From: Candidatus Alkanophaga liquidiphilum
Lineage (GTDB): Archaea; Halobacteriota; Syntropharchaeia; Alkanophagales; B39-G2
Reading direction: 5' to 3'
Assembly (NCBI GenBank): GCA_029259535.1
Contig: JAPHEF010000005.1
Span: 97-64,096, forward strand
DNA length: 64,000 nt
The notes beneath the pieces are model-generated. The model ran no database searches and was not told the DNA's origin. It saw nothing but the letters and a program-made list of their open reading frames with translations. The position numbers and the translations under genes were made by a program. Below, in pieces: positions 8,812-52,994 of the stretch. How positions within the stretch are numbered: position 1 is the stretch's first letter; the number at the start of each line of letters is the position of its first letter.

Positions 8812-8885
8812 TGGGCCCGATGCGACTCGAACGCATGACCTCCGCCGTGTGAGGGCGGCGTCATAACCACCTAGACCACGGGCCC
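8812..8885 (-). tRNA. tRNA-Val (anticodon CAC)
   Basis: Reverse complement folds as a cloverleaf: acceptor GGGCCCG/CGGGCCC, anticodon stem CCGCC/GGCGG, loop CTCACAC, T-loop TTCGAGT, discriminator A. No encoded CCA. Confidence 0.85.
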
Positions 8886-32168: not shown

Positions 32169-32246
<78 letters not shown>

Positions 32247-40206: not shown

Positions 40207-41535
40207 ATGCCGGAGCAGCCGAGGTTCGACCCCTGGGGCTCAGCCGTCATCGATTACTCAAAAGTGTTCACGGAGTTTGGAATATCGAGGTTCGAGGGGC
40301 TTCTGCCGAGAGTTAAGGAGCCACATCTTTACATGCGTCGCCGCATTGTAATGGGGCATCGGGACTACGAGCTTATTTTGGAGGCGATGGAGCGGCGCCG
40401 TCCGTTTGCGGTGATGAGCGGCTTTATGCCTTCAGGAAAACTGCACCTTGGCGGGAAAATGGTCATGGACGAAATCATCTGGCACCAGCGGATGGGCGCT
40501 GCGGCGTTCGTCAGCATTGCCGACATGGAAGCGCATGCCGTTCGCCGCATATCTTGGCGTGAGTGCAAGAAGATTGGCGTCTTCGAATATATACTCAGCC
40601 TGATCGCCCTCGGCTTCGACCCGCACAGGGGCTTCATTTACTTCCAGTCTGAAAACAGGTTGCTACAAGACCTCGCCTTCGAACTGGGTTGCGAGGCTAA
40701 CATCGGAGAGCTGAGCGCAGTTTACGGCTTCTCCAGCGACGTCAACGTCTCGAAGTGCGTCAGCGTGCTCATGCAGAGCGCCGACATCCTGCAGCCGCAA
40801 CTCGCAACGTTCGGCGGACCAAAGCCAACGGTAATTCCTGTTGGTTTCGACCAAGACCCGCATATCCGATTAACGAGAGACGTTGCCTCAAGGGTGCGGC
40901 TCTTCACCGTCGAGCTCGTCAAAAATGGGGATGAATGTGTGAGGGTCAGGGCGAAGACGGAGGACGCCGCCTCTGCGCTCACGGAGGTTACGAGCAAGCT
41001 CGGCGGCGAGAAGCGAGCTTACGAGATGCATGTTGATGTCTACGGCGAGCCTTTCGAAGTGGTGGAGCGTGTGGTCAGGGAGGTAGAAATTGAGCTCGGC
41101 GGCTACGGCTTTTACCCGCCGGCAGCGACGTTCCACCGCTTCATGCGTGGGCTCGGCGGCGGGAAGATGTCGTCGTCGAAGCCTGAGAGCTACATAGCGC
41201 TGACGGAGCCGCCGAGGGACGCCGCTGCGAAGGTAATGAACGCAAAGACCGGCGGGCGGGCGACTCTGGAAGAGCAGCGGAAGCTTGGCGGCGTTCCCGA
41301 GGAGTGCATAGTTTACGAGCTTCTGATGTTCCACCTTATCGAGGACGACCGGCACGTAGCTGAAATTTACGAGGAGTGCATCTCAGGACGCCGCACCTGC
41401 GCAGCTTGCAAAAAGGCGGCGGCAGAGCTTATGCGTTCTTTCCTGAAAGAGCATCAGGAGAGGAGGGAAGAGGCGAAAAACGTTTTAAAGGAATTGGATA
41501 TGGGGAAGAAGTGGCTGGAAGCTGTTAAGTTTTGA
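40207..41535 (+). CDS. Tryptophanyl-tRNA synthetase-like class I aaRS, atypical (HLGG instead of HIGH; about 80-aa insertion)
   Basis: N-terminus DPWGSAVIDYSKVFTEFG as in archaeal/eukaryal TrpRS. KMSSSK motif. Extra domain RLFTVELVKNGDECVRVRAKTEDAA...EIELGG. Confidence 0.6.
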   Translation: MPEQPRFDPWGSAVIDYSKVFTEFGISRFEGLLPRVKEPHLYMRRRIVMGHRDYELILEAMERRRPFAVMSGFMPSGKLHLGGKMVMDEIIWHQRMGAAAFVSIADMEAHAVRRISWRECKKIGVFEYILSLIALGFDPHRGFIYFQSENRLLQDLAFELGCEANIGELSAVYGFSSDVNVSKCVSVLMQSADILQPQLATFGGPKPTVIPVGFDQDPHIRLTRDVASRVRLFTVELVKNGDECVRVRAKTEDAASALTEVTSKLGGEKRAYEMHVDVYGEPFEVVERVVREVEIELGGYGFYPPAATFHRFMRGLGGGKMSSSKPESYIALTEPPRDAAAKVMNAKTGGRATLEEQRKLGGVPEECIVYELLMFHLIEDDRHVAEIYEECISGRRTCAACKKAAAELMRSFLKEHQERREEAKNVLKELDMGKKWLEAVKF

Positions 41536-41610
41536 GGGCGGGTGAAGCCATTATAAACACTTTTTTATAAAAAAGTGATTATGGAATAAACAAAGGAGGT
41601 GTGGTGAAAA

Positions 41611-42204
41611 ATGAAGATGGTTTTTGTTTCACACACAAAAAGAGATGCAGAATTCTGCGATGCATTTGATAGAGTATGTGCTCGAGTAGGAATTAGAGCA
41701 TTTCGCTCTGAATTTGAAACAATTGAGAGACCTGCGTGGAAAACAATAAAAGATGCTATAAATAAATCTATTGCTGTATTCTTTTTAGTAGGAGAAGAAT
41801 TAGTAAGGAGTCAGGATTTAGGAGATCCTGAATGGAGATATACTCAGAATTGGATTGCTTATGAAATAGGTATAGCATGTCAAAGAGGAATTGATGTTTG
41901 GGCTGTTTGTGATGACGTCCCAATTAACTTTCCGATGCCATATATCAATAATTATCTTACTTTAAGCTTAAAGCACGAGCCGGCATTTAATTATTTAAGA
42001 GAAGTCCTTGAACTCTATAAAACAGGGCAGACTTTCCCTTTTCCTTATGTAGACCCTTTTGGGAATAATCTAGGCGTAAAGTGTCCCTACGATGACTGTC
42101 AAATGGAATTTAACTTGCATGTTGGCTTACCACCAGGAGAAATAATCAGGTGCCCTCAATGTTTGAGGAATATAGTGTTTCCTCAGGGCATTTACTTTGA
42201 TTAA
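41611..42204 (+). CDS. TIR-like (DUF1863/ThsB-like) domain protein with C-terminal Cys4 zinc ribbon
   Basis: VFVSHTKRDAEF...SIAVFFLVGEEL...WIAYEIGIA pattern of TIR-like domains. C-terminal CPYDDC...CPQC. Lies in an AT-rich island. Confidence 0.6.
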   Translation: MKMVFVSHTKRDAEFCDAFDRVCARVGIRAFRSEFETIERPAWKTIKDAINKSIAVFFLVGEELVRSQDLGDPEWRYTQNWIAYEIGIACQRGIDVWAVCDDVPINFPMPYINNYLTLSLKHEPAFNYLREVLELYKTGQTFPFPYVDPFGNNLGVKCPYDDCQMEFNLHVGLPPGEIIRCPQCLRNIVFPQGIYFD

Positions 42205-42341
42205 CTGCCAAAAAATGAACACGCCGACAGCGTATAACAGAGCGTATCTGGCTATGGTGCTTCACACTTGCCTAAACCCACCTTCGGCGTGCTTCAGATA
42301 CGCTCAAAACGTTATACTTATATGCTTGCAACACTTAAGTT

Positions 42342-43015
42342 GGACGTGTCCACATAACATAAGCCCACCGCAACCGATTATAGTATAGCATGAACAACTT
42401 ACAGAACACATTCCAGTTTCTAACGGATTAAAACAGCTAATTGAGAAAAGAGCGTCTTTATCCGCTGCTTCAGCGAAAAACACCGATTCTACCGAGCTTC
42501 ATAATCTCACCGAAAGGACTGATGTTCAAATTCCCAACCAAGTCTTCTCATAGCATCCATTAACCAAGCTTATCTATAATAATCCGGGCCTATTCTCGCA
42601 GTATTCTAGCACTTCCTTTAAAGACTTTAGTTAGATAATTCCGTGTTGTATAAACTCTCATAATCAACTCATTCCTCTCCACACCGCAGAATAAACATAG
42701 TACGCCTTTTATTCGCTTTAACAATTGTTTCGTCTGAGGCAATCAGATTTCTTTGTTTTTTCTCTGTTGTAACCGGTAGCTTCTCTTCAAATTTCTTTTC
42801 TTTATCCAGTTCCGGACAGAGGTTTTAGAGACGGGATGGAGCTCTGACAGAATTCCGGCAGCCCTTCACCGAAGCCGTCTGAATATAAGCTAGGATCTTA
42901 ACTCGAAAGGCGGCGGCACCTTATTCTTCTCAAACACCTTCAACTCCTCCACAATCCCCCTTACACTACGCATAAAAATAGTTCCCCCCATTTATGATCT
43001 TATGTGGACACGTCC
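42342..43015. mobile_element. MITE-like non-autonomous element bounded by 16-bp terminal inverted repeats, no intact ORF
   Basis: GGACGTGTCCACATAA at 42342-42357 and its reverse complement TTATGTGGACACGTCC at 43000-43015. The interior is AT-rich with only short broken reading frames. Confidence 0.5.
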
Positions 43016-43258
43016 TAGTCCTCACGCAATTCATCACAACCCTGATGGGTGTGAGCTTTCTTGCTTAGTTTTTTGTAATGCCCATTTAGACGCCGCTCAG
43101 CAGAAGGAAACAAATTGCCGACATCTTGGCATTTAATGATGTGGGAGCATGAGGTAAGCTTATATATGAGGCTTGCCAACGGCAAATGATATCCGACAAT
43201 AAAGGAGGTAATGTCCGGCGTGCTGCTTGCCCGAATAACTGGGAATTGAGGCGGGAAA

Positions 43259-43726
43259 ATGTGGAGAATAGTTGCAAAGCCCGAGGTATGTATGGGATGT
43301 CACCTTTGCGAGATTTGGTGTGCGGTGGCGCACTCTACGTCCAAAGACATCATTAAAGCCTTCCTTTACGAGGGACAGAAGCCCTTGCCGAGACTCCTCG
43401 TTGAGGAAAGCTACCCTGAAAGCTTTGCGCTGCAGTGCAGGCATTGCGATGAGCCCGAATGTATGTTCGCATGCATCAGCGGCGCCTTATATAAGGACAG
43501 AACGGGCAGAGTGCTCCATGACGAGAGCAAATGCGTCGCCTGTTATAGTTGCATAATGGCTTGCCCCTACGGCGCCATCAGAATTAACCCGTTCACCGGC
43601 AAGATTCTCAAATGCGATCTGTGTGCGGATTTGGATTTCCCGTTATGCGTGGAAAAATGTCCAAACAACGCTCTGGAATACGTGGAGATTAAGACTGAGG
43701 CGGAGGAAAAGCTTTATGAGATATGA
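43259..43726 (+). CDS. 4Fe-4S dicluster ferredoxin-domain protein
   Basis: CxxCxxC...CP motifs (CMGCHLCEIWC; CVACYSCIMACP; CDLCADL...CVEKCP). Confidence 0.75.
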   Translation: MWRIVAKPEVCMGCHLCEIWCAVAHSTSKDIIKAFLYEGQKPLPRLLVEESYPESFALQCRHCDEPECMFACISGALYKDRTGRVLHDESKCVACYSCIMACPYGAIRINPFTGKILKCDLCADLDFPLCVEKCPNNALEYVEIKTEAEEKLYEI

Positions 43727-45026
43727 TTACGTCATCATAGGGAACTCTGCAGGTGGCATCGGCTGCGTTGAGGCAATAAGAGAGCTGGATGAAGCTTCGA
43801 GCGTGGCGGTAATCGCCGCTGAGAAATATCATGCTTATTCCAGAGCTTTGATCCCGTATTATCTGGATGGCAAGATAGAGTTGGACAAAATCTATTATCG
43901 CCCGCATGATTTTTACCAAAAGATGAACGTCGAGACGCATCTCGGCGTTAAAGCCGTAGGAATAGATATAAATTCAAGGGAGGTCCTGCTGGAGGATGGG
44001 GTGCGGGTCGGCTTTGGCAAGCTACTGATAGCAACCGGCGGAAAGCCGTTTATACCTCCTATTGAGGGGCTTTCAGGTCAAAAGAACGTTTTCACCTTCC
44101 TAAAGCTCGAAGACGCCCTCGGCGTGAAGGAGACTTTGAAGAGCGCTGAGACATCGCTAATTCTCGGAGGCGGTATCATCGGGCTGATGGTGGCTGAAGT
44201 TTTGAGACGGAAAGGGCTCGAAGTCATAGTGGTGGAGCTTGCCGACAGAGTTCTTGCGCCGGTCGTTGACCCGATAACCTCAAAACTCGTGCAGGAGAAG
44301 TTTGCTGAAAATGGGGTTGGGATTATCCTTCAGAACACGATCGCAAAGGTTGTTGGAGAGAAGGAGGTTGAAAGAGTAATTTTGAAGGACGGGAGCGAAC
44401 TTCCAACGGACTTGCTTATTTTAGCGGTTGGCGTGCGTCCCAACACTGAGGTTGTGAGAGATACTCCCATCAAAGTGAATAGGGGCATAGTGGTGGACAA
44501 ATATATGGAGACGTCCGTCAAAGGCATTTACGCCTGTGGCGACTGTGCCGAGATCTACGATTTTGTTTTCGGAGCTAACAGGGTGCTGCTGCTCTGGCCA
44601 ACAGCCTACGTCGGCGGGAGAATCGCAGGCTTCAACATGTGCGGCGTCCGCCGTGAACTCACGCACGCCACGAGCATGAATGCAATGCATTTCTTTGACT
44701 TCTATATTGTGAGCGCCGGGCTGAACGTCCCGAATGACAGCGATGAGTTTGAGGTGATCTACAAGCTTGACGAAGAGCGGAAGATTTACAGGAAATTTGC
44801 GCTCAAAGATGGGGAAATAGCTGGATTCATCCTCGCAGGAAAGGTTGACAGGGCTGGAATATTCTTAAAACTTATGAAAGAAGGCGTTAAAGTCACTGGG
44901 TTCAAGGACAAGCTGTTGAAGGAGGATTTCGGGTATGTTGACTTGTCTGAGGAAATAAGGTGGGATTTGCTGGCGGATAAAGTGAAGCTGGGGGTGGTAT
45001 ATGAGTATGCGGCGTATGAGGCGTGA
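43716..45026 (+). CDS. FAD-dependent pyridine nucleotide-disulfide oxidoreductase (NAD(P)H oxidase / CoA-disulfide reductase-like)
   Basis: GXGXXG motifs DYVIIGNSAGG and ILGGGIIGLMVAEVL. Start taken at the internal Met MRYDYVIIG, overlapping the ferredoxin stop. Confidence 0.75.
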   Translation: MRYDYVIIGNSAGGIGCVEAIRELDEASSVAVIAAEKYHAYSRALIPYYLDGKIELDKIYYRPHDFYQKMNVETHLGVKAVGIDINSREVLLEDGVRVGFGKLLIATGGKPFIPPIEGLSGQKNVFTFLKLEDALGVKETLKSAETSLILGGGIIGLMVAEVLRRKGLEVIVVELADRVLAPVVDPITSKLVQEKFAENGVGIILQNTIAKVVGEKEVERVILKDGSELPTDLLILAVGVRPNTEVVRDTPIKVNRGIVVDKYMETSVKGIYACGDCAEIYDFVFGANRVLLLWPTAYVGGRIAGFNMCGVRRELTHATSMNAMHFFDFYIVSAGLNVPNDSDEFEVIYKLDEERKIYRKFALKDGEIAGFILAGKVDRAGIFLKLMKEGVKVTGFKDKLLKEDFGYVDLSEEIRWDLLADKVKLGVVYEYAAYEA

Positions 45027-46146
45027 GACTCTGCCCGATAAGGAGCACCAAGCCTGCGGCTTGTTTGGCGTGATGAATAGGAAGGGAGAGAGATTTGGAG
45101 GAAGGATGGCTATAGATGCCTTGATGAACATGAGGGTCAGAGGAAACGGGCTTGGAGCCGGTTTTGCCGCCTACGGAATTTACCCTGAACATAAAGATTA
45201 CTACGCATTGCACATAATGTTTCAAGATTGGGACTTAGATGCGAAGCGTGAAGTTGATAAATTCCTTGGAGCAAACTTCGACGTTGTTTGCGACGAGGAA
45301 ATGCCCACGAATCCTGAGGCATCGGTGATAAATCCGCCGCTCGTGTGGCGTTACTTCATGGCGCCGGATAAAAAAGGAGATGAAAAAAGGCTCAGCGACG
45401 ATGACTACGTAGTAAAGAAAGTGATGCACATAAATACGAGGATAAAAAACGCTTACGTCTTTTCGTCGGGGAAGAACATGGGCGTGTTCAAGGGCGTCGG
45501 CTTCCCTGAGGAGATAGCCGAGTATTTCATGCTTGAAAAGGAGTATAGGGGGTATATTTGGGTGGCGCACAGCAGGTTCCCAACGAACACGCCCGGCTGG
45601 TGGGGCGGCGCCCACCCGTTCTGCATCCTCGACTGGACGGTCGTCCATAACGGGGAAATTTCATCTTACGGCACGAACAAGAGGTATCTTGAGATGTATG
45701 GCTATTATTGCACGCTGCTTACCGACACTGAGGTCATGGCCTACGCCGTCGACCTACTGATGCGAAGGCAGCGCCTCCCGATCGAAATTGTGGCGAAGAT
45801 ATTTGCGCCGCCGATGTGGGACCACGTCGACATCATGGACGAGAAAAGGAAGAAGCTCTACATGACGTTGAGGATGGTTTACGCTCCGTTATTGATAAAC
45901 GGACCTTGGACGATTATCGTCGCTCATCACGGTGAGATGTTCGGCATAACTGACAGGATAAGACTCCGCCCCATAACCGCAGGGGAGAAAGGCGATTTGC
46001 TTTTCGTTTCGTCGGAAGAAGCAGCTATTAGGGCGGTCTGTCCCAACCTCGATAGAGTCTTCACGCCGATGGGCGGCGAGCCCGTGGTGGGCAGGCTGAA
46101 AGGCGTGGAAAAGGAGCTGAGGAAGAAGGCTGAAGAGGGGGTGTAG
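45001..46146 (+). CDS. Glutamate synthase, class-II glutamine amidotransferase domain subunit (archaeal split GltB)
   Basis: Ntn-type GATase with catalytic Cys in ACGLFGV. HNGEISSYGTNKRY. Confidence 0.8.
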   Translation: MSMRRMRRETLPDKEHQACGLFGVMNRKGERFGGRMAIDALMNMRVRGNGLGAGFAAYGIYPEHKDYYALHIMFQDWDLDAKREVDKFLGANFDVVCDEEMPTNPEASVINPPLVWRYFMAPDKKGDEKRLSDDDYVVKKVMHINTRIKNAYVFSSGKNMGVFKGVGFPEEIAEYFMLEKEYRGYIWVAHSRFPTNTPGWWGGAHPFCILDWTVVHNGEISSYGTNKRYLEMYGYYCTLLTDTEVMAYAVDLLMRRQRLPIEIVAKIFAPPMWDHVDIMDEKRKKLYMTLRMVYAPLLINGPWTIIVAHHGEMFGITDRIRLRPITAGEKGDLLFVSSEEAAIRAVCPNLDRVFTPMGGEPVVGRLKGVEKELRKKAEEGV

Positions 46147-47693
46147 TGGTGGAGCTGGTCAGAGGAGAAGAGATGTTCAGTCACATGCTCCCGGAGTTCA
46201 TCGTGGAGCGTCGAGAAGACCGCTGTATAAGATGCAGGGTCTGCGAGCGTCAGTGCGCTTTCGAAGTTCATAAATACGACAAAGAGCTCGATATGGTATT
46301 TTCCGACGAGAAGAAGTGCGTCGGCTGCCAGAGGTGCGCCGTTTTATGCCCGACGGATGCGTTGGTCATAAGACCGCACCCCGGGGAGTACCGGCGGAAC
46401 GCTAACTGGACGAGAGAGCGCATCCAAGACTTGAAGAAGCAGGCTGAGACCGGTGGCGTTATTCTGACAGGGAGCGGCAACGACAAGCCCTACCGTATCT
46501 ACTGGGACCACATCGTCCTGAATGCATCTCAGGTTACGAATCCTTCGATTGACCCGCTGCGGGAGCCCATGGAGTTAAGAACGTTCCTCGGCAGGAAGCC
46601 TGATGCGTTGGAGTTAAGATTCAACGGCGGCGACTACGAGGACGTGGAGGTAGCCACTGAGCTATATCCGAACGTGATGATAGAGACACCGATGGTATTC
46701 TCAGCTATGTCCTACGGGGCGATAAGCTATCAGGCTTTCAAGTCGCTGGCGATGGCAGCAAGCGAGTATGGAACGCTGTTCAATACCGGCGAGGGCGGTC
46801 TGCCGAAGGAGCTTCGGAAATACGGCAAAAACGCCATCGTGCAGTGCGCAAGCGGAAGATTTGGCGTCGACCCTGAATACCTCAACTGCGCCGCCGTCGT
46901 AGAAATCAAAATAGGGCAGGGCGCAAAGCCTGGAATAGGCGGGCATTTGCCGGGCGAGAAGGTGACGCTGCCGATTTCGGTGACGAGGATGATTCCTGAA
47001 GGCACGGACGCCCTTTCCCCGGCGCCGCAGCACGACATTTATTCCATCGAGGACCTGAGCATGCTCATCTACGCCTTAAAGGAAGCAACAAACTACGAGA
47101 CGCCCGTCAGCGTTAAGATAGCGGCGGTGCACAACGTCGCCGCAATAGCAAGCGGGATGGTCAGAGCCGGCGCCGATATAATCGCCATTGACGGCCTGCG
47201 AGGCGGAACCGGGGCAGCTCCGAAGACCATCAGGGACAACGTCGGAATTCCCATCGAGCTCGCACTGGCGGCGGTCGACCGGAGGCTGAGAGAGGAGGGG
47301 ATAAGAAATAAGTGTTCGATTCTCGTCGCCGGCGGCTTCAGGTGCAGTGCCGACGTTGTAAAAGCCATAGCGCTCGGGGCGGACGCTGTTTATGTCGGCA
47401 CGCCCGCGCTCGTGGCGATGGGCTGCACTCTCTGCCAGAAGTGCTACACAGGAAAGTGCAACTGGGGAATCTGCACGCAAGACCCTTATCTTTCAAGGAG
47501 GCTGAACCCTGAAATCGCTTCTAAGAGGCTCGTGAACTTGCTGAGGGGCTGGAGTTTCGAAATAAAGGAGATGCTTGGTGGGATGGGCATAAACGCCGTT
47601 GAAAGCCTTAGGGGCAACAGGGACCATTTGCGGGGCGTGGGGCTTGAGGATTGGGAGCTTGAGGTTCTCGGCATAAAGGGGGCTGGTGAGTGA
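46146..47693 (+). CDS. Glutamate synthase FMN-binding domain subunit with N-terminal 2x[4Fe-4S] ferredoxin domain
   Basis: CIRCRVCERQC and CVGCQRCAVLCP. GltS FMN/Fe-S core GAKPGIGGHLPGEKV and IDGLRGGTGAAP. Confidence 0.85.
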   Translation: MVELVRGEEMFSHMLPEFIVERREDRCIRCRVCERQCAFEVHKYDKELDMVFSDEKKCVGCQRCAVLCPTDALVIRPHPGEYRRNANWTRERIQDLKKQAETGGVILTGSGNDKPYRIYWDHIVLNASQVTNPSIDPLREPMELRTFLGRKPDALELRFNGGDYEDVEVATELYPNVMIETPMVFSAMSYGAISYQAFKSLAMAASEYGTLFNTGEGGLPKELRKYGKNAIVQCASGRFGVDPEYLNCAAVVEIKIGQGAKPGIGGHLPGEKVTLPISVTRMIPEGTDALSPAPQHDIYSIEDLSMLIYALKEATNYETPVSVKIAAVHNVAAIASGMVRAGADIIAIDGLRGGTGAAPKTIRDNVGIPIELALAAVDRRLREEGIRNKCSILVAGGFRCSADVVKAIALGADAVYVGTPALVAMGCTLCQKCYTGKCNWGICTQDPYLSRRLNPEIASKRLVNLLRGWSFEIKEMLGGMGINAVESLRGNRDHLRGVGLEDWELEVLGIKGAGE

Positions 47694-48535
47694 TGGAATA
47701 TTCCATAGGCGGTCTCAGAGATATGTTCCTCGGAAATGTGCGTCGTCTCGAGGACATCCTTAGCTACGCAAATATTAGCGACGACATAGCTGAGATAGAT
47801 GCCTCAAGATTGGTTCATAAGGAAATAAACGACCTGATGCGGTATTGCGCCCTGCAAGGAGTCAGGAAAATCGTTTTGCGGGGTGTGTGCGGGCAGCGCT
47901 ACCTCGGGACGAGACTCTACTTCCCGAACCCAAGACCAAGGCTCGAAATCGAAATCCATGGGCATCCGGGCAACGATCTCGGCGCCTTCCTCGACGGGCA
48001 TCGTATCGTCGTTCACGGGAACGCTCAGGACGGCGTCGGAAACACAATGGACGGAGGCGAAATCCTCGTTCATGGGCGGGCGGGCGACGTCGTCGCAATG
48101 TCCATGCGGGGCGGCAGAATCCTCATCAGGGACGACGTCGGCTATAGGGCGGCAATCCACATGAAGGAGTATAAGGATAAGGTTCCCGTGCTCGTCGTCG
48201 GCGGCACCGCCCAAGATTTCTTCGGCGAATATATGGCTGGCGGCAGAGTGGTCCTCCTCGGCTTGAACCTCGGCAACAAGCCGCACCGTGCGAGATATAT
48301 TGGAACGGGCATGCACGGCGGCATCATGTTCATCAGAGGTAAGGTGGAGAAGTGGCAGCTCGGCAAAGAAGTCGGAATTGTGGACATGGAGCGAGAGGAC
48401 TGGAAACTCCTTGAAAAGCATGTTGGGGATTTCTGCGAAATTTTTGGATTTAAAAGGGATGAGGTGCTTGGCGGGGACTTCCTGAAGCTGAAACCAATGA
48501 CGAAAAGACCCTACGGCAAGGTTTACGCATACTGA
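47690..48535 (+). CDS. Glutamate synthase C-terminal (GXGXG) domain subunit
   Basis: Repeated beta-helix GXGXG motifs (HGNAQDGVGNTMDGGEILVHGRAGD...). Confidence 0.8.
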   Translation: MMEYSIGGLRDMFLGNVRRLEDILSYANISDDIAEIDASRLVHKEINDLMRYCALQGVRKIVLRGVCGQRYLGTRLYFPNPRPRLEIEIHGHPGNDLGAFLDGHRIVVHGNAQDGVGNTMDGGEILVHGRAGDVVAMSMRGGRILIRDDVGYRAAIHMKEYKDKVPVLVVGGTAQDFFGEYMAGGRVVLLGLNLGNKPHRARYIGTGMHGGIMFIRGKVEKWQLGKEVGIVDMEREDWKLLEKHVGDFCEIFGFKRDEVLGGDFLKLKPMTKRPYGKVYAY

Positions 48536-48650
48536 CCTGCTTTATGGGAATCAAGAGGAGTTGCTGCCGTAACGGTTCTTATTGAAGGAAAAAGTTGCTA
48601 AAAGCTAAATCCAAATTCAAAAACCTCAGGCGTTCTTATTCCGTTGCCTA

Positions 48651-50564
48651 TCATATCAGTCTTAGGGTTTCCAAGTTCATCGGCGCCCTCGTGTCGATAC
48701 CGAACTTTTTGTATATTGCGCTTGCGAGCTCTATGCATTTCGAGCTCTCGCCGTGCACGCATACGACTCTGGAGGGCTGCGGTTTCATCCGGCGCACGTA
48801 TTCGAGGAGCTGCTCACGATCGGAGTGCCCTGAGAACCCGTCCACGGTGATGACTTCCATATTTATCTTTACGACCTCGGTCTTCCCCTCGCCTGTGGAG
48901 AACTGCACCTCCTTCCAGCCACGCTGGATGCGCCGCCCCAGCGTCCCCTCCGCTTGATAACCCACGAAAATCATAGTGTTCCGCTCATCATAAGCCAGAC
49001 CCTTTAGATACTCTATCACGGGACCGCCATTCAGCATGCCTGACGTCGCAAGTATAATCGAGGGCTCCGGGCTTTCTATGACTTCTTTGCGCTTGTCGGC
49101 GTCATCGACTTGTACGAAAACGTCTGAGAGGAAAGGATTTAGCCCCTTGTGGAAAATCATATTCCTGAGATTCTTGTTGAGGTATTCGGGATAAGCCGTA
49201 TGGATAGCGGTAGCCTCCCAGATCATCCCATCAAGGTAAACTGGCACCTCCTCAATTATCTCGTTCCTTATGGACTCCTCCAGGACAATCATGACCTCTT
49301 GCGACCTGCCGACCGCAAATGCCGGGATTATGACCTTACCGCCACGGCTGAGCGTCCTTTTTACTACTTCTTGAAGCCTCCTTTCAGCCTCACGCCTTGA
49401 CGGCTGGAAGTCGTTATTCCCGCCGTAAGTCGCTTCGATGACAAGGGCTTCGACCCTTGAGAACCAATTGACTGCCGGGTCGAAAAGGTGCGTCCGCTCG
49501 TATTTTATGTCGCCGGTGAAGACGACGTTATAGAGACCGCTGCCGATGTGAAAATGGGCGACCGCCGAACCGAGAATATGTCCGGCGTTGAAAAATGTGA
49601 GCTTGACATCAGGGGCGATGTCGGTGACGTCGCCGTAATTCAGAGGGATGGTATGCCGCAAAGCCTCTCGTATCATCTGCGACTTGTAAGGTGGGCGCCT
49701 GCCCTCCCGTGCTGAGACTTCGATGTAGTCGAGCTGCAAGAGCACCATTAGGTCACGGGTGGGTGGCGTTACGTAAACCGGACCGTCATACCCATACTTG
49801 AAAAGCAGGGGCAGCAGCCCCGAATGGTCGAGATGGGCATGCGTGATGACGACGGCGTCCAACTGGTCTAACGGGGAGACTTCCGGCACGTAAAGATACG
49901 GCATTTCGCCGTTGCTCGAAACGTTGACGCCGCAGTCTATCAGTATGCGGGTCTCAGGCGTGGAGAGTAAGAAGGCGGAACGCCCGACCTCACGGCAGCC
50001 GCCAAGCATTGTAACGCGCACCCACTCGTCGCTCGACAGCTTCTCCCTGAAAATGTGCCTGCCTACCCGCTTCAGGAAATCACGGCGGAAGATACCCTCT
50101 GCCCTCAGAAACTGTCTTATGTTCTTTATCGTCGTGGATTGTATTGGCGGCGCTCTTATGACGTTCACACGCCAGCCTATTCGCTTCGTGATGTCTCTGA
50201 GGGTTGCGCCCTTCCGTCCTATGACGAGCCCGGGCTTCTCTGCCTCTATCACGACCTCGCAGGCATCGAAGTCGAAGTATATGTCCCGAATGCCGCTGTC
50301 TTCGGGGATTATATCATAAATGTATTTTACTGCCCTCTCCGGCTCCATCAGGATTTCCGGGTTCGGACGGATCGCTATTCGCTTCTTCAGCTCTTTAGCA
50401 ATGTTCCTTACTAGTTCTTCATTTTCCGCAAACTTCTGCGGCTCCTCCGTGTATATGACTATTTGAGGCCCCTCAAAATCCACGCTCGTTATGCTCACGT
50501 CGTTGGGGAGAAGTTCAAGGATTCTCTGTCGGAACTCTTCGAGCATCTGTTCTGCTGTTGGCAT
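48651..50564 (-). CDS. aCPSF1-type beta-CASP ribonuclease with N-terminal KH domains (transcription termination factor FttA)
   Basis: KH domains. Metallo-beta-lactamase HAHLDHSG. Beta-CASP and RMMBL C-terminus. 637 aa. Confidence 0.85.
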
Positions 50565-50597
50565 TCTCTCACTCCAAGCCTGCCAAGCAGGCGTTAA

Positions 50598-51266
50598 TTA
50601 AGAAACTGACCGTCTTATCCTGTCTATTTCCTCCTTACTCAGCTCCTTGTATCTGTCCTTCGTTATCGCAACAACCTCTATATCATCGCCAGAGGCGACG
50701 TCCCGCTTTATTGCGCCGTGCAGTGCGCGCACGGCAAGCTCTGTTCCCTCTTCCAGGGAGATATCCTTGTGATAACGGTCCTCGATGATGCCGTAAGCGA
50801 TGGGCGAGCCTGAGCCCGTGACCGCCGCCTCTCGTTCTTCGATGGCGCCGCCGAGCGGGTCTAACGAGAAGATGCGCGGACCTGTGTGGTCGATGCCGCC
50901 GACAAGGAGTTGCGTGTAAAAAGGGAACAGGCGTTGCGCATTGAGGATGTTGGCGAGGAGCGTCGTAATTGCTTTTATCGTCATGGGCTCGCCCCGTCGC
51001 ATCTTGTAGAGCTTCGCCTCCACCGAGACTATGCGGACGAGCGTCTGGGCGTCGCCGACGAGCCCGGCGGTAGTCATGCCGACATTGTCATCTATTTGGT
51101 ATATCTTCTTTGCGGCTTTCGACGCTATAAAGTAGCCAATGGTCGCTCTTTTCTCACTGGCGAGCACGACGCCGCCGTCGCAGACGATGCCGACGGTCGT
51201 GGTCCCCCTGAAAGCATTCTTGAAAACGTCCCCTAACCCTTCCATGCGTGTTGTTAAGTCTCCCAT
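50598..51266 (-). CDS. psmB: Proteasome subunit beta
   Basis: Propeptide then catalytic [21 protein letters not shown]. Confidence 0.85.
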
Positions 51267-51292
51267 GCTATTGCCTCCTCAGTTCAGGGCAG

Positions 51293-51718
51293 TCAAACCT
51301 TCTGCGTGGTCGTAAGCTTGACGTGCTTTACGCCTTTTAGGCTCATAATTTTCTCGGTCAGCTCGCGCAGCCGCTTTGCGTCCCCGCCCACAATGACAAC
51401 CTCAAGACAGTTGCTCTCGTCGAGATGGATGTGCAGAGAGGTCCTTATAACATCGATAAAGTGATGCTGTAAATCCACAAGCTCACTGTTTATCCCTCTT
51501 TGCTCATGGTCATAAATAAAGGTTACGACACCGACCCGCTCGCCGCTCTCGCCGCTCATCCACTCGTATTCGACGATGTAGTTGCGAATCGCATCTCTTA
51601 TGCCCTCAGACCTTGAGGAGTAGCCGCGCTCTTTTATTATACCATCAAAGCGGCGCAACAGGTTCGAAGGCAGCGAAACTCCAATCCTCATCAACTTCTC
51701 TTCCTGCTCCGCGCTCAC
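51293..51718 (-). CDS. nikR: Nickel-responsive regulator NikR (RHH + metal-binding domain)
   Basis: RIGVSLPSNLLRRFD ribbon-helix-helix. H..H...C nickel site HHFIDVIRTSLHIHLDESNC. Confidence 0.75.
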   Translation of the reverse strand: MSAEQEEKLMRIGVSLPSNLLRRFDGIIKERGYSSRSEGIRDAIRNYIVEYEWMSGESGERVGVVTFIYDHEQRGINSELVDLQHHFIDVIRTSLHIHLDESNCLEVVIVGGDAKRLRELTEKIMSLKGVKHVKLTTTQKV

Positions 51719-52161
51719 ATCTTCGTTCTTCGTCCTCTCAGACCTCCTTCACTACGTCTTATTATCTCTTCTATTATATCTTTACTACTGCAAAAGGGGT
51801 ATGAATTACATTTACCCAGCCGCACCACCTTCGTGTTAAAACCCCTCCTCCTAAGTTCCCTCTCAAGCTCACGCTCATCAAAATTTTGGTCGTAGCCCAA
51901 AGCCACAATATCCGGTTTTATTTCATAAAGCGGCTCAAATATATCTTTTTCGCTGCCGAGCACCGCCTTGTTTACAATCTTAAGAGAGGCTACCATCTTA
52001 AGCCGCTGCTCTTCAGGGATGATAGGTGCCCGCTTCTTAACGTTAACGTCACGGGCGACGATGACATAAAGCTCGTCGCCAAGCTTTTTCGCCTCCTCAA
52101 GATAGAAGATATGTCCGGGATGTAAGATGTCGAACGTCCCCGTTGCAAGCACCCTTACCAT
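51715..52161 (-). CDS. ribL: Archaeal FAD synthase (FMN adenylyltransferase RibL)
   Basis: Cytidylyltransferase motif GTFDILHPGH. 148 aa. Confidence 0.8.
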   Translation of the reverse strand: MVRVLATGTFDILHPGHIFYLEEAKKLGDELYVIVARDVNVKKRAPIIPEEQRLKMVASLKIVNKAVLGSEKDIFEPLYEIKPDIVALGYDQNFDERELERELRRRGFNTKVVRLGKCNSYPFCSSKDIIEEIIRRSEGGLRGRRTKM

Positions 52162-52994
52162 CTTTTCACACTCCCACCGCCAAGGAAGCCCCTTCAGGGG
52201 AGGAATTGGCGGAAGTTATTTATATATCTTTAGTTATTTGTCTCGATGGGCTGGAGCGGCTTTCTTTATGCCAGTTTTCCAGCCCGATGCGGGTGCGGTC
52301 TTACAGCCACCCCGATGGCTCGATGAAGCGGGACGGCGCCCCACGCACCCACGCACGCACGGGCGAGGGCAAGCTAGCTCCTCGTTCATCGAGGAGACGC
52401 TGACCTCTTTTATCTTTTTACCAACTATGAATTGGGGGAGTTTGAATTCTAAAAACCTAACATCAACTCCTTAACAAAGTTTCTACCAAGAGAAAGCCTT
52501 ATTCTATTTCTATCAACTTTGAACATATCCCTTTGAAAAGTACAAACCAAATAACTGTCTTTTGCAGAGAGATTGGTCTATTGTAGTTCCTTTTTCTCTT
52601 CTCATCAAGAATGTGGAAGAAGCACATGCTTTTATCGACAACTTTCATTGCTTGATGTGCAACTTGATATGGAAGTAGTTTGTAGTCCTCGTTATGCTTA
52701 ACAAGGTGATAAGCTTATTCATATTGAAGGCATTTGCCGTTGTTAAAGTAATATTATCTTACTGTGTAGAGGCAGAATTGTAGAGGCTTTTGGAAAGTCT
52801 GGTAAGTATTTTGAGAATGTTGTATGTTTTCTTGTTAGTTTTGACATGGCTTTTCTGTGTGGGACATGTTTATCATTTTTAATAAATTCATGTATTTATG
52901 GTTTATGACTAAGAAAATCGTAATTCACTCACCGGTTGAAACCGGTGGTCTTCTTGCGAGAGTCTTATAAAGTAGCATTCTAACAGGAAAAAAG

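Follow-up and report, generated by a model that had tools for sequence, protein, structure and literature searches.

A horizontally acquired gene for a TIR-like zinc-ribbon protein next to a MITE-like element in an alkane-oxidising archaeon

Introduction

TIR and TIR-like NADases are central to immunity in all domains of life, and abortive infection by NAD+ depletion is the working mode of SpbK, Swarozyc, Evangelion and Vulcan. To our knowledge, almost nothing is known about the antiviral defence of hosts such as thermophilic alkane oxidisers. As late as 2026, new TIR-like lineages became named defence systems (DUF4062/NIR), and Swarozyc (KpSwz), Evangelion (Eva01) and Vulcan need both a catalytic glutamate (E97, E87 and E98, respectively) and an auxiliary region (10.64898/2026.05.01.722283, 10.64898/2026.06.25.731849, 10.64898/2026.09.04.749371). 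About 20% of DUF4062 defence genes lie in islands and more than 50% have a defence neighbour (10.64898/2026.05.01.722283). Here, we describe an interval (41536-43258) of a 64-kb window, the whole stretch of DNA that was analysed, from an alkane-oxidising archaeon (Ca. Alkanophagales), in which a TIR-like core is paired with a minimal zinc-ribbon module in one 197-aa protein.

With the DUF4062/NIR NADases, this protein shares a one-polypeptide plan of an N-terminal TIR-like core and a C-terminal auxiliary region, a conserved glutamate near residues 85-100 (the role of E85 here being putative) and, for its gene family, spread by horizontal transfer. Their auxiliary region is a large, diversified sensor (326 aa in KpSwz, HEAT repeats in Vulcan), whereas here it is a short, conserved Cys4 ribbon; more than half of them have a defence neighbour, whereas the family of the 197-aa gene lies outside defence islands in 26 loci and is mostly archaeal or from sediment anaerobes. 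The DUF4062 profile (PF13271) scores 12.6 bits against the 197-aa protein (E=0.17, under the cut-off of 24.7) and is matched weakly (E<=0.01) by 16 of 116 relatives. Thoeris ThsB (ThsB_TIR, formerly DUF1863) likewise stands alone as a TIR-like protein, is of similarly small size and has its glutamate in the same context, W-x-x-[WY]-E-[IV]; the 197-aa protein differs by its zinc ribbon and by one more helix (residues 62-74), which precedes the WxxxE helix, and ThsA, which adjoins ThsB in Thoeris, is not found beside the 197-aa gene. For SpbK of Bacillus subtilis ICEBs1, the match spans only ~28 N-terminal residues of the 197-aa protein (E=0.007), and the TIR domain is C-terminal in SpbK (matched residues 138-167) but N-terminal here. 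Nucleoside 2-deoxyribosyltransferases (NDT, Pfam clan Nribosyltransf) resemble the protein in fold, but it has no NDT profile match. We know of no zinc ribbon in SpbK or in NDTs.

Base composition and features of the interval

The initial annotation had noted a fall in base composition between the two flanking genes, and 300-nt windows bear this out, with GC of 0.33-0.43 inside (0.33-0.34 over 41550-41999 and 0.38-0.43 over 41850-42899), whereas the TrpRS gene has 0.55-0.63 and the ferredoxin gene ~0.52; over 41536-43015 as a whole, GC drops from ~0.55 to 0.33-0.42. The 197-aa gene itself has a GC content of 0.367 (z = -3.8 when set against every 600-nt stretch of the 64 kb, with mean 0.522 and sd 0.041). 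Its GC3 is 0.27, whereas the other 47 ORFs in the window that reach 150 aa average 0.64 and do not fall under 0.49. The gene is, as had been proposed, the sole intact one of the interval, being the only ORF with homologues or a domain match, and neither the Rfam nor the tRNA scan found anything in the interval (features in Table 1).

The spacer upstream of the gene contains a 30-nt near-perfect palindrome (41553-41582, ATAAACACTTTTTTA/TAAAAAAGTGATTAT) with a TATA-like TTTATAAAA inside and, 8 nt ahead of the ATG, a Shine-Dalgarno-like GGAGGTG, from which we infer that the gene has its own archaeal promoter and ribosome-binding site. The spacer at the other end of the interval has no ORF with homologues and presumably holds the promoter region of the ferredoxin operon.

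Table 1. Features in and beside the interval, in positions of the 64-kb window.
Feature	Position	Strand	Details
TrpRS gene (tRNA-synt_1b)	stop at 41535		upstream flank; NCBI name tryptophanyl-tRNA synthetase for 92-100% identical relatives
AT-rich upstream spacer	41536..41610	+	GC 0.35
TIR-like zinc-ribbon protein gene	41611..42204	+	197 aa
TIR-like alpha/beta domain	residues 1-120 (41611-41970)	+	invariant F5, D12, W81, E85, G87, A89
Helix of the 197-aa protein	residues 123-137	+	
Cys4 zinc ribbon, four-stranded	residues ~155-190 (42073-42180)	+	C158, C163, C181, C184
Imperfect 87-nt hairpin, attC-like layout	42232..42318	+	inverted repeat; GTATAAC - A - GAGCGTATCTG ... CAGATACGCTC - AAAAC - GTTATAC
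MITE-like non-autonomous element	42342..43015	.	674 bp, 19-nt terminal inverted repeats, no transposase
Spacer between MITE-like element and ferredoxin gene	43016..43258	+	GC 0.46
4Fe-4S ferredoxin gene			downstream flank; Fer4_11, E=4e-19

A TIR-like domain with a zinc ribbon

The 197-aa protein contains the motifs VFVSH, AVFFLVGEEL and WIAYEIGIA, as well as four C-terminal cysteines, and had been described at the outset as a TIR-like protein of the DUF1863/ThsB type with a C-terminal Cys4 ribbon. Pfam TIR_2 (PF13676) matches it at 24.9 bits (E=3.1e-5) over residues 4-80 only, below the gathering cut-off of 28, and is matched by 83 of the 116 relatives at E<=0.01 (best 1.5e-7), although a precomputed PF13676 call is found on only ~10% of relatives. 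The AlphaFold model (pLDDT 95) shows a TIR/NDT-type, flavodoxin-like fold in the N-terminal 120 residues, with a predicted five-stranded parallel beta-sheet, and its best fold matches are TIR domains and nucleoside deoxyribosyltransferases. Profile and predicted fold thus agree on a TIR-like domain, and it is the narrower ThsB-type assignment that finds no support, since PF08937 (ThsB_TIR) does not match the 197-aa protein at E<=10. Nor is that profile one of the 11 families listed across the 116 relatives; it is reached by distant members only (P0196, 23.0 bits, cut-off 21.2; P0210, 20.2 bits), and one distant member weakly matches the CAP12/Pycsar TIR profile (23.3 bits, cut-off 24.7). The PADLOC spbK model is weakly matched by 70 of the 116 relatives and the ThsB models by 26. 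In the PDB, the best sequence matches of an N-terminal profile are weak and fall on KpSwz DUF4062 (E=0.027, residues 2-62), SpbK and AbTIR; a full-length profile returned zinc-finger noise only, and a profile of the C-terminal 80 residues, used to look for the zinc-ribbon module fused to other effectors, returned four short fragments and nothing else, an uninformative outcome from a search that covered few candidate sequences.

Neither W81 nor E85 varies among 116 close and 27 diverse sequences; the W-to-E spacing is +4, and both residues are retained in members with ~30% identity. The ribbon is present as described, and its four cysteines are invariant or nearly so and are retained in relatives only 29-35% identical. 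W81-x3-E85 presumably corresponds to the WxxxE on helix aC of bacterial TIR NADases (e.g., W204/E208 of AbTir), which suggests E85, by motif and position, as the putative catalytic glutamate of a glycohydrolase acting on NAD+ or a related nucleotide.

Distribution and genomic setting

The protein belongs to an unnamed family that spans archaea and bacteria (~400 clusters at 50% identity), has members of ~195-205 aa and lacks a dedicated Pfam, NCBIfam or PADLOC model. Its main hosts are uncultured sediment archaea and Dehalococcoidia, with thermophilic alkane oxidisers among them, and the closest relatives of the 197-aa protein (60-92% identity) are from other phyla and the other domain. Similarity to the sister species breaks off right at the TrpRS stop codon (41535); the TrpRS of that species is 92% identical and has no such gene after it. 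Because the sister species lacks the gene here and synteny breaks at the TrpRS stop, the gene was acquired horizontally in this Ca. Alkanophagales genome, as had been suggested. The low GC3, the closest relatives in other phyla and the other domain, and a dS between two strains of 0.092 for the 197-aa gene compared with 0.013 for the adjacent TrpRS gene also speak for acquisition. The family gene is AT-richer than its host nearly everywhere, in one case with a GC3 of 0.24 in a host with a GC3 of 0.78. No relatives were found among the viral contigs of IMG/VR, a result that is uninformative on defence either way; a viral origin was considered and set aside, BFVD giving weak NDT-like fold matches only.

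At every locus examined, the family gene is solitary. A hidden conserved partner was sought by clustering every ORF at 32 loci with BLAST and by all-against-all phmmer comparison of neighbours within two genes in 30 loci, and both yielded lineage-specific synteny only; nor does a ThsA-like or SIR2 gene, the partner that had been suggested for checking, occur at ~30 homologous loci, and a Pfam summary of 130 neighbours lists none either. Neighbours within three genes at 26 loci are mainly housekeeping genes (MetK, AdoHcyase, MiaB-like, IspG, and aminoacyl-tRNA synthetases including TrpRS and GluRS). PADLOC run on these 130 neighbours gave scattered single matches only (one AbiEi/AbiEii pair, one phospholipase effector, PDC-S13, PDC-M05A and PDC-S09), leaving any PADLOC-type neighbour within three genes at only ~4-5 of 26 loci, in a survey of a narrower neighbourhood than that of the DUF4062 study (10.64898/2026.05.01.722283), and defence enrichment was rejected. 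The interval likewise holds no second defence gene. A horizontally acquired TIR-like gene plus a MITE is thus upheld, and the "mini defence island" of the initial annotation is not. In Dehalococcoidia, the gene occupies a stable syntenic slot (after metK, before miaB) with divergence tracking that of its neighbours, which is unusual for fast-turnover defence genes; conserved synteny in related genomes had been named at the outset as grounds for refutation.

Interpretation

The explanation that we place first, tentatively and at somewhat less than an even chance, is a foreign-DNA junction with a horizontally acquired gene, a candidate one-protein TIR NADase abortive-infection switch, and an independent MITE-like passenger. 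The interval would be foreign DNA placed at a synteny breakpoint, in which a self-contained gene is followed by an unrelated element that may have aided rearrangement. By analogy with SpbK, Swarozyc and Evangelion, the 197-aa protein is best read as a putative single-protein TIR NADase, and a single-gene defence system is a reasonable hypothesis. E85 would cleave NAD+ or a related nucleotide, the helix and zinc ribbon may act as a regulatory or sensing module governing oligomerisation and activation, and a viral cue would lead to NAD+ depletion and growth arrest. The AT-rich coding sequence, retained in every host, may limit expression of a potentially toxic enzyme. Frameshifted or truncated family copies at 3 of ~28 loci, taken as a sign of dispensability, are counted in favour. 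Counted against are the strong conservation, in place of diversification, of the zinc ribbon as putative sensor, the profile scores of the 197-aa protein (TIR_2 below the gathering score, ThsB_TIR unmatched, DUF4062 at only E=0.17), the mainly housekeeping neighbours and the stable synteny in Dehalococcoidia. Rather more doubtful is a fuller version, in which the family (TIR-ZnR) is a new family of single-protein immune NADases of archaeal origin whose AT-richness is actively maintained and whose compact zinc ribbon directly senses a conserved viral or nucleic-acid cue. Its basal members would be those in Bathyarchaeia, Nitrososphaeria and Thermoplasmatota, the free-standing gene would have crossed into Dehalococcoidia, Omnitrophota and WOR-3, and the AT-rich sequence would keep a toxic effector poorly expressed until needed.

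The predominance of housekeeping neighbours, the lack of a conserved partner, the very high full-length conservation, ribbon included, and the stable synteny with congruent divergence in Dehalococcoidia would suit an NDT/LOG-like N-glycosidase or transferase of nucleotides or nucleosides, without an immune role and with a zinc-ribbon tail binding nucleic acid or protein, which would have a conserved cellular role (nucleotide salvage, or NAD- or RNA-linked processing) and be transferred occasionally. This is an unlikely, though not a negligible, alternative: the profile matches are all TIR-type (TIR_2, ThsB_TIR, DUF4062, spbK and CAP12-TIR) with no NDT or LOG model among them, the distribution is patchy and crosses domains, the foreign composition is retained, and the gene is missing at the TrpRS position in the sister species and pseudogenised at some loci. 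A Thoeris-like ThsB, i.e., a TIR sensor whose cyclic-ADPR-type signal would act on an effector from another part of the genome, is improbable given that no ThsA, SIR2, Macro or SLOG gene adjoins the gene in the window or at ~30 loci and that the window protein is unmatched by ThsB_TIR.

We give equally little credence to a selfish, cassette-like mobile gene (an integron-type or other site-specific insert) that persists by addiction or toxicity and not by host benefit, which would account for the lone insertion between unrelated housekeeping genes, for AT-richness in all hosts, for DNA similarity between homologous loci that is limited to the coding region, and for a 3' half that is especially diverged between two near-identical strains, suggesting allele exchange. 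Just after the stop codon in the window lies the attC-like hairpin (DNA fold -13.4 kcal/mol, z=-2.1), which may serve as a terminator or recombination site or may have arisen by chance. By our own search pattern, which is other than the IntegronFinder model, the window locus is the only homologue locus with such a structure (0 of the 27 others), and 1.2% of control downstream regions have one (5 of 430), so that an integron cassette was rejected as a family property; moreover, the ORFs of the 8 kb around the gene (38.5-46.5 kb) include no evident integrase or second cassette, and inheritance in Dehalococcoidia is vertical. Flanking direct repeats, tried as insertion scars, are significant around the gene at one locus only (13 nt at L005, 1 of 100 shuffles) and marginal at three others (L009, L029 and L047).

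If active, the candidate TIR NADase would give activation studies a TIR enzyme that is very small (197 aa) and probably thermostable. A family that is solitary, set among housekeeping genes and AT-rich whatever the host GC challenges the guilt-by-association search for defence genes and raises the question of selection on the composition of toxic genes; should it prove to be a housekeeping glycosidase instead, it would warn against equating "TIR-like" with "defence".

The adjoining mobile element

The MITE-like element begins 137 nt downstream of the 197-aa gene, and its description as an ORF-less element of 674 bp with 16-nt terminal inverted repeats is accurate and can be extended. The arms (42342-42360 and 42997-43015) are 19 nt long and complementary at 18 of 19 positions, with a perfect 16-nt core (GGACGTGTCCACATAA), and the longest internal ORFs are 40-59 aa. 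Pfam found nothing significant in two stop-spanning minus-strand pseudo-translations; a transposase origin, raised by what looked by eye like a decayed HTH/DDE start, was set aside, Pfam giving HTH_28 at a non-significant E=0.13. The flanks (...CTTAAGTT / element / TAGTCCTC...) show no clear matching target-site duplication.

Like archaeal MITEs and other non-autonomous insertion sequences, the element combines a length of 674 bp and 19-nt repeats with the lack of a transposase, has identical termini in different contexts and breaks short-read assemblies; it differs from them in having no recognised target-site duplication, autonomous partner or transposase family. Four further copies in JGI contigs (L041-L044), recovered for the left 176-262 nt only, are 90-96% identical over that length and all begin at the same base, GGACGTGTCCACATAACAT, in unrelated flanks. 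The element is thus a true mobile, multi-copy repeat. Five assemblies of the same and the sister strain terminate 29-167 nt inside it, and eight contig ends lie inside its copies.

Description

The AT-rich interval between the TrpRS and ferredoxin genes encodes a TIR-like zinc-ribbon protein (TIR-ZnR) that matches Pfam TIR_2 over residues 4-80 (E=3.1e-5, 24.9 bits, below the gathering score of 28), with faint Pfam matches to a LysW-type zinc ribbon and DUF4062. It gave no match to ThsB_TIR/DUF1863 (Pfam) or in NCBIfam and no meaningful match in PHROGs, and its sole PADLOC match was spbK (E=0.007). TIR_2 is matched by 83 of 116 relatives and DUF4062 by 16; the PADLOC spbK model (70/116) and ThsB models (26/116) match weakly throughout, distant members pass the ThsB_TIR cut-off, and one distant member weakly matches the CAP12/Pycsar TIR model (23.3 bits; cut-off 24.7). 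The best PDB sequences for a profile of the N-terminal domain are KpSwz (DUF4062, E=0.027), SpbK and AbTIR. The AlphaFold model, computed from 116 sequences, has very high confidence (pLDDT 95.4, pTM 0.91) and predicts an alpha/beta domain with five strands, then a long helix (123-137) and four short strands that surround the cysteines, with top Foldseek matches to a SPARTA TIR-APAZ protein (5.9e-5), RUN1 TIR (5.2e-4) and TIR-STING. The TIR_2 score, the family-wide matches and the TIR-type Foldseek matches uphold the description of the protein as TIR-like; the combination of this core with a zinc ribbon is a new architectural variant in an unnamed family.

The close set shows no variation at H8, D12, D20, G61, W75, W81, E85, G87, A89, C158 and C163 and hardly any at C181 and C184, and F5, D12, S53, A55, W81, E85, G87, A89 and F107 are still invariant in the wider set (down to 32-46% identity), whose basal members lack an insertion at residues 62-74 (strand C to the WxxxE helix). 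Because of this conservation and insertion, motif and topology would place W81-x3-E85 where TIR domains have their catalytic motif ('S-x-W-C-x-x-E' / WxxxE). Even the members furthest removed (Nitrososphaeria, Thermoplasmatota, Bathyarchaeia) have both the TIR-like domain and the CPxC...CPxC ribbon.

A word-indexed search yielded 365 unnamed relatives, nearly all 190-210 aa and 56-92% identical, and when 1.84 billion cluster representatives were searched exhaustively with a profile, 405 matched at E<=1e-3, 231 of them at E<=1e-10. The family is compact and sharply bounded; IMG/VR held no relatives. In GTDB contigs (one genome per species), archaeal carriers are Thermoplasmatales, Methanoperedens, GoM-Arc1, 'Halobacteria' MAGs, Bathyarchaeia and Nitrososphaeria, and other carriers are many Dehalococcoidia, Omnitrophota, WOR-3 and one contig labelled delta-proteobacterial. 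A neighbour-joining tree has three groupings: basal (Nitrososphaeria/Thermoplasmatota; Bathyarchaeia), a Dehalococcoidia clade of metK-adjacent and miaB-adjacent subclades, and a 'promiscuous' clade in which the window gene is intermixed with Thermoplasmatales, Methanoperedens, Omnitrophota and others. Frameshifted or truncated copies occur in GoM-Arc1 (L020:8264-8886), a Dehalococcoidales MAG (L026:9980-10571) and a Bathyarchaeota MAG (L022:10001-10411), so that some lineages can do without the gene, if the copies are not assembly artefacts.

Features of the window locus and island-like contexts of homologues
Feature	Position	Strand	Details
Palindrome, near-perfect, 30 nt	41553-41582		ATAAACACTTTTTTA/TAAAAAAGTGATTAT; between TrpRS and TIR-ZnR genes; TATA-like box inside
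TIR-ZnR ORF	41611-42204	+	197 aa; protein quoted in the initial annotation
Imperfect hairpin	42232-42318		attC-like R''-L''...L'-R' layout; directly after TIR-ZnR stop codon; DNA fold z=-2.1
Inverted-repeat arms of 674-bp element	42342-42360 and 42997-43015		19 nt, 18/19 complementary
Island-like context	L004:1509-10342		Tyrosine integrase, AAA_15+DUF3226, split PLD genes, HU-like gene
Island-like context	L045:2775-12715		HU-like gene, two DNA methyltransferases, HATPase_c_3 protein

Proteins that share 92-100% identity with the adjacent TrpRS are named by NCBI from Candidatus Alkanophagales archaea, which are thermophilic alkane oxidisers of the Guaymas Basin (PMC10322722). The TIR-ZnR gene lies at the same place in a strain with a 99% identical TrpRS (L036-L039). 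A sister species (TrpRS 92%, 86% nucleotide identity) has the entire upstream block in common (KH, RIO1, eIF1A, GTPase, OapB, OapC, PRT, 3HCDH, ECH, PurS, TrpRS); the match ends at 41535, precisely with the stop codon of TrpRS, after which the sister species carries a NUDIX gene (one assembly) and a KaiC-like/T2SSF/PilB cluster. The horizontal acquisition proposed in the initial annotation is borne out by this break, and the AT-rich interval is also present: GC, 0.55-0.63 in the TrpRS gene, drops to 0.33-0.34 across 41550-41999, stays at 0.38-0.46 to ~43200 and is back at ~0.52 in the ferredoxin gene. The 594-bp TIR-ZnR ORF, the one copy in the window, has a GC of 0.367 (z = -3.8 relative to every 600-nt segment of the 64-kb window) and a GC3 of 0.27, versus a mean of 0.64 and minimum of 0.49 for the 47 other long ORFs in the window. 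It is preceded by AGGAGGTG 8 nt upstream, and the palindrome before it may serve as an operator, as a promoter or as a TrpRS terminator; assembly L040 stops within the palindrome, at 41556.

Between the window gene and its counterpart in the other strain (L036:7411-8001), dS is 0.092 and dN 0.031, versus 0.013 and 0.006 for TrpRS. Differences lie mostly in the 3' half (dS 0.185 in the 3' third), and the two proteins end in different residues (GIYFD vs GHLI). Allele exchange by recombination is suggested, on small counts of synonymous changes (10 vs 4 in TrpRS). Farther downstream, 52166-52260 is a 78% inverted match to the sister species (L033:12857-12951, 5.5 kb downstream of its TrpRS), which hints that a roughly 10.6-kb block (41536-52165) was rearranged or replaced between the species. 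A second AT-rich stretch without ORFs (GC about 0.34) lies at 52400-52990. ARAGORN called a tRNA-Val(CAC) at 8812-8885 that the Rfam tRNA model does not return at its gathering threshold; tRNA-Arg (32169-32244) is the only tRNA found by both.

AT-richness is shared across the family, with mean GC3 of 0.32 for TIR-ZnR genes versus 0.45 for neighbouring ORFs (n=26, Wilcoxon p=2e-6) and the lowest GC3 of the locus in 12/26. An apparently vertically inherited metK-group copy (L017:5657-6238) has a GC3 of 0.24 versus a neighbour average of 0.78. Between loci, DNA similarity is limited to the coding region. AT-richness in nearly every host suggests selection on composition or repeated replacement.

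No conserved partner beyond close relatives was found by all-against-all ORF clustering (32 loci) or by the more sensitive phmmer search of neighbours within two genes (30 loci). The TIR-ZnR gene lies 6-22 nt after metK at three loci with S-adenosylmethionine synthetase and AdoHcy hydrolase, and a MiaB-like radical-SAM enzyme is its neighbour at three; further neighbours are IspG, an MFS transporter, TrpRS and AcnX. Because TIR-ZnR identities (62-82%) parallel those of neighbouring genes (71-84%) in the metK and miaB groups, long vertical residence is indicated there. PADLOC on 130 neighbours within three genes returned single matches only (an AbiE pair, a phospholipase effector and three PDC candidates). 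With such scattered singles in housekeeping neighbourhoods, the mini defence island of the initial annotation is not supported; overall, its observation is confirmed and its interpretation partly supported. Two homologue contexts resemble mobile or defence-type islands (Table). At the Thermoplasmatales locus L005, a ParE-type toxin pair follows the TIR-ZnR gene, with GluRS seven genes downstream of it; the gene is enclosed by a direct repeat of 13 nt, TTTTGTAAC(A/G)TCT (148-160 and 764-776; 1/100 shuffles match), which may be the scar of an insertion. In L009 and L047, weaker repeats lie on either side of the gene. A four-gene block is common to window 43623-47693, downstream of TIR-ZnR, and Bathyarchaeota L023:4311-9045, upstream of it (as the first three genes in the window, a pyridine-nucleotide-disulfide-oxidoreductase-like gene and two archaeal glutamate-synthase-like genes; the fourth family is 271 aa long in L023), which may be coincidence.

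SpbK is a comparable TIR example. Another TIR-like lineage, DUF4062/NIR, includes the single-protein systems Swarozyc, Evangelion and Vulcan, which have an N-terminal NADase core (catalytic glutamate E97, E87 and E98, respectively) and a C-terminal auxiliary sensor, and act by NAD+ depletion and abortive infection (three preprints of 2026: 10.64898/2026.05.01.722283, 10.64898/2026.06.25.731849, 10.64898/2026.09.04.749371). TIR-ZnR likewise has a core, with intact WxxxE, and a C-terminal module; the window protein scores below the DUF4062 cut-off, and membership was rejected; its gene also lacks a defence-island setting. Thoeris membership, and with it the DUF1863/ThsB type first assigned, was also set aside, as the protein has no ThsB model match and its gene no adjacent ThsA. 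The best-supported mechanism would be an NAD+ (or nucleotide) glycohydrolase switched on by ligand or oligomerisation, because of the intact WxxxE and the core-plus-module logic common to DUF4062/NIR systems. A non-immune enzymatic role is seriously in play, favoured by the housekeeping neighbourhoods, stable synteny in Dehalococcoidia and the conserved zinc ribbon. TIR-ZnR is noteworthy mainly for its cross-domain spread and persistent AT-richness, and for belonging to the functionally uncharted archaeal TIR-like proteins.

The hairpin after the gene (GTATAAC-A-GAGCGTATCTG...CAGATACGCTC-AAAAC-GTTATAC) is kept at 98.6% in the sister strain. Our own pattern search found no comparable attC-like hairpin after 27 other homologues and the same pattern in 5/430 control regions; the hairpin is peculiar to the window locus.

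The 674-bp ORF-less element that follows is a real multi-copy mobile element without transposase, since its copies share a precise start amid unrelated flanks and assemblies end inside it, in agreement with its earlier description as MITE-like. Its terminal inverted repeats are real and slightly longer than claimed (19 nt vs 16); the 16-nt core occurs in the window at these two sites only (0.22 matches expected by chance, <=3 mismatches). Neither a target-site duplication nor an autonomous partner was identified, and pseudo-translations gave no significant Pfam match. Five independent assemblies (window strain and sister strain) break off 29-167 nt into the element. When JGI metagenomes were scanned with the first 23 nt of the element, four contigs, all belonging to one sample, proved to carry left ends 90-96% identical over 176-262 nt, all with the exact first base and three at contig ends. 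In one (L041:1637-2353), the HepT (HEPN) toxin gene belonging to an MNT-HepT pair borders directly on the 176-nt left-end fragment, which seems to cut it short, and immediately past the element end is a tRNA-like sequence.
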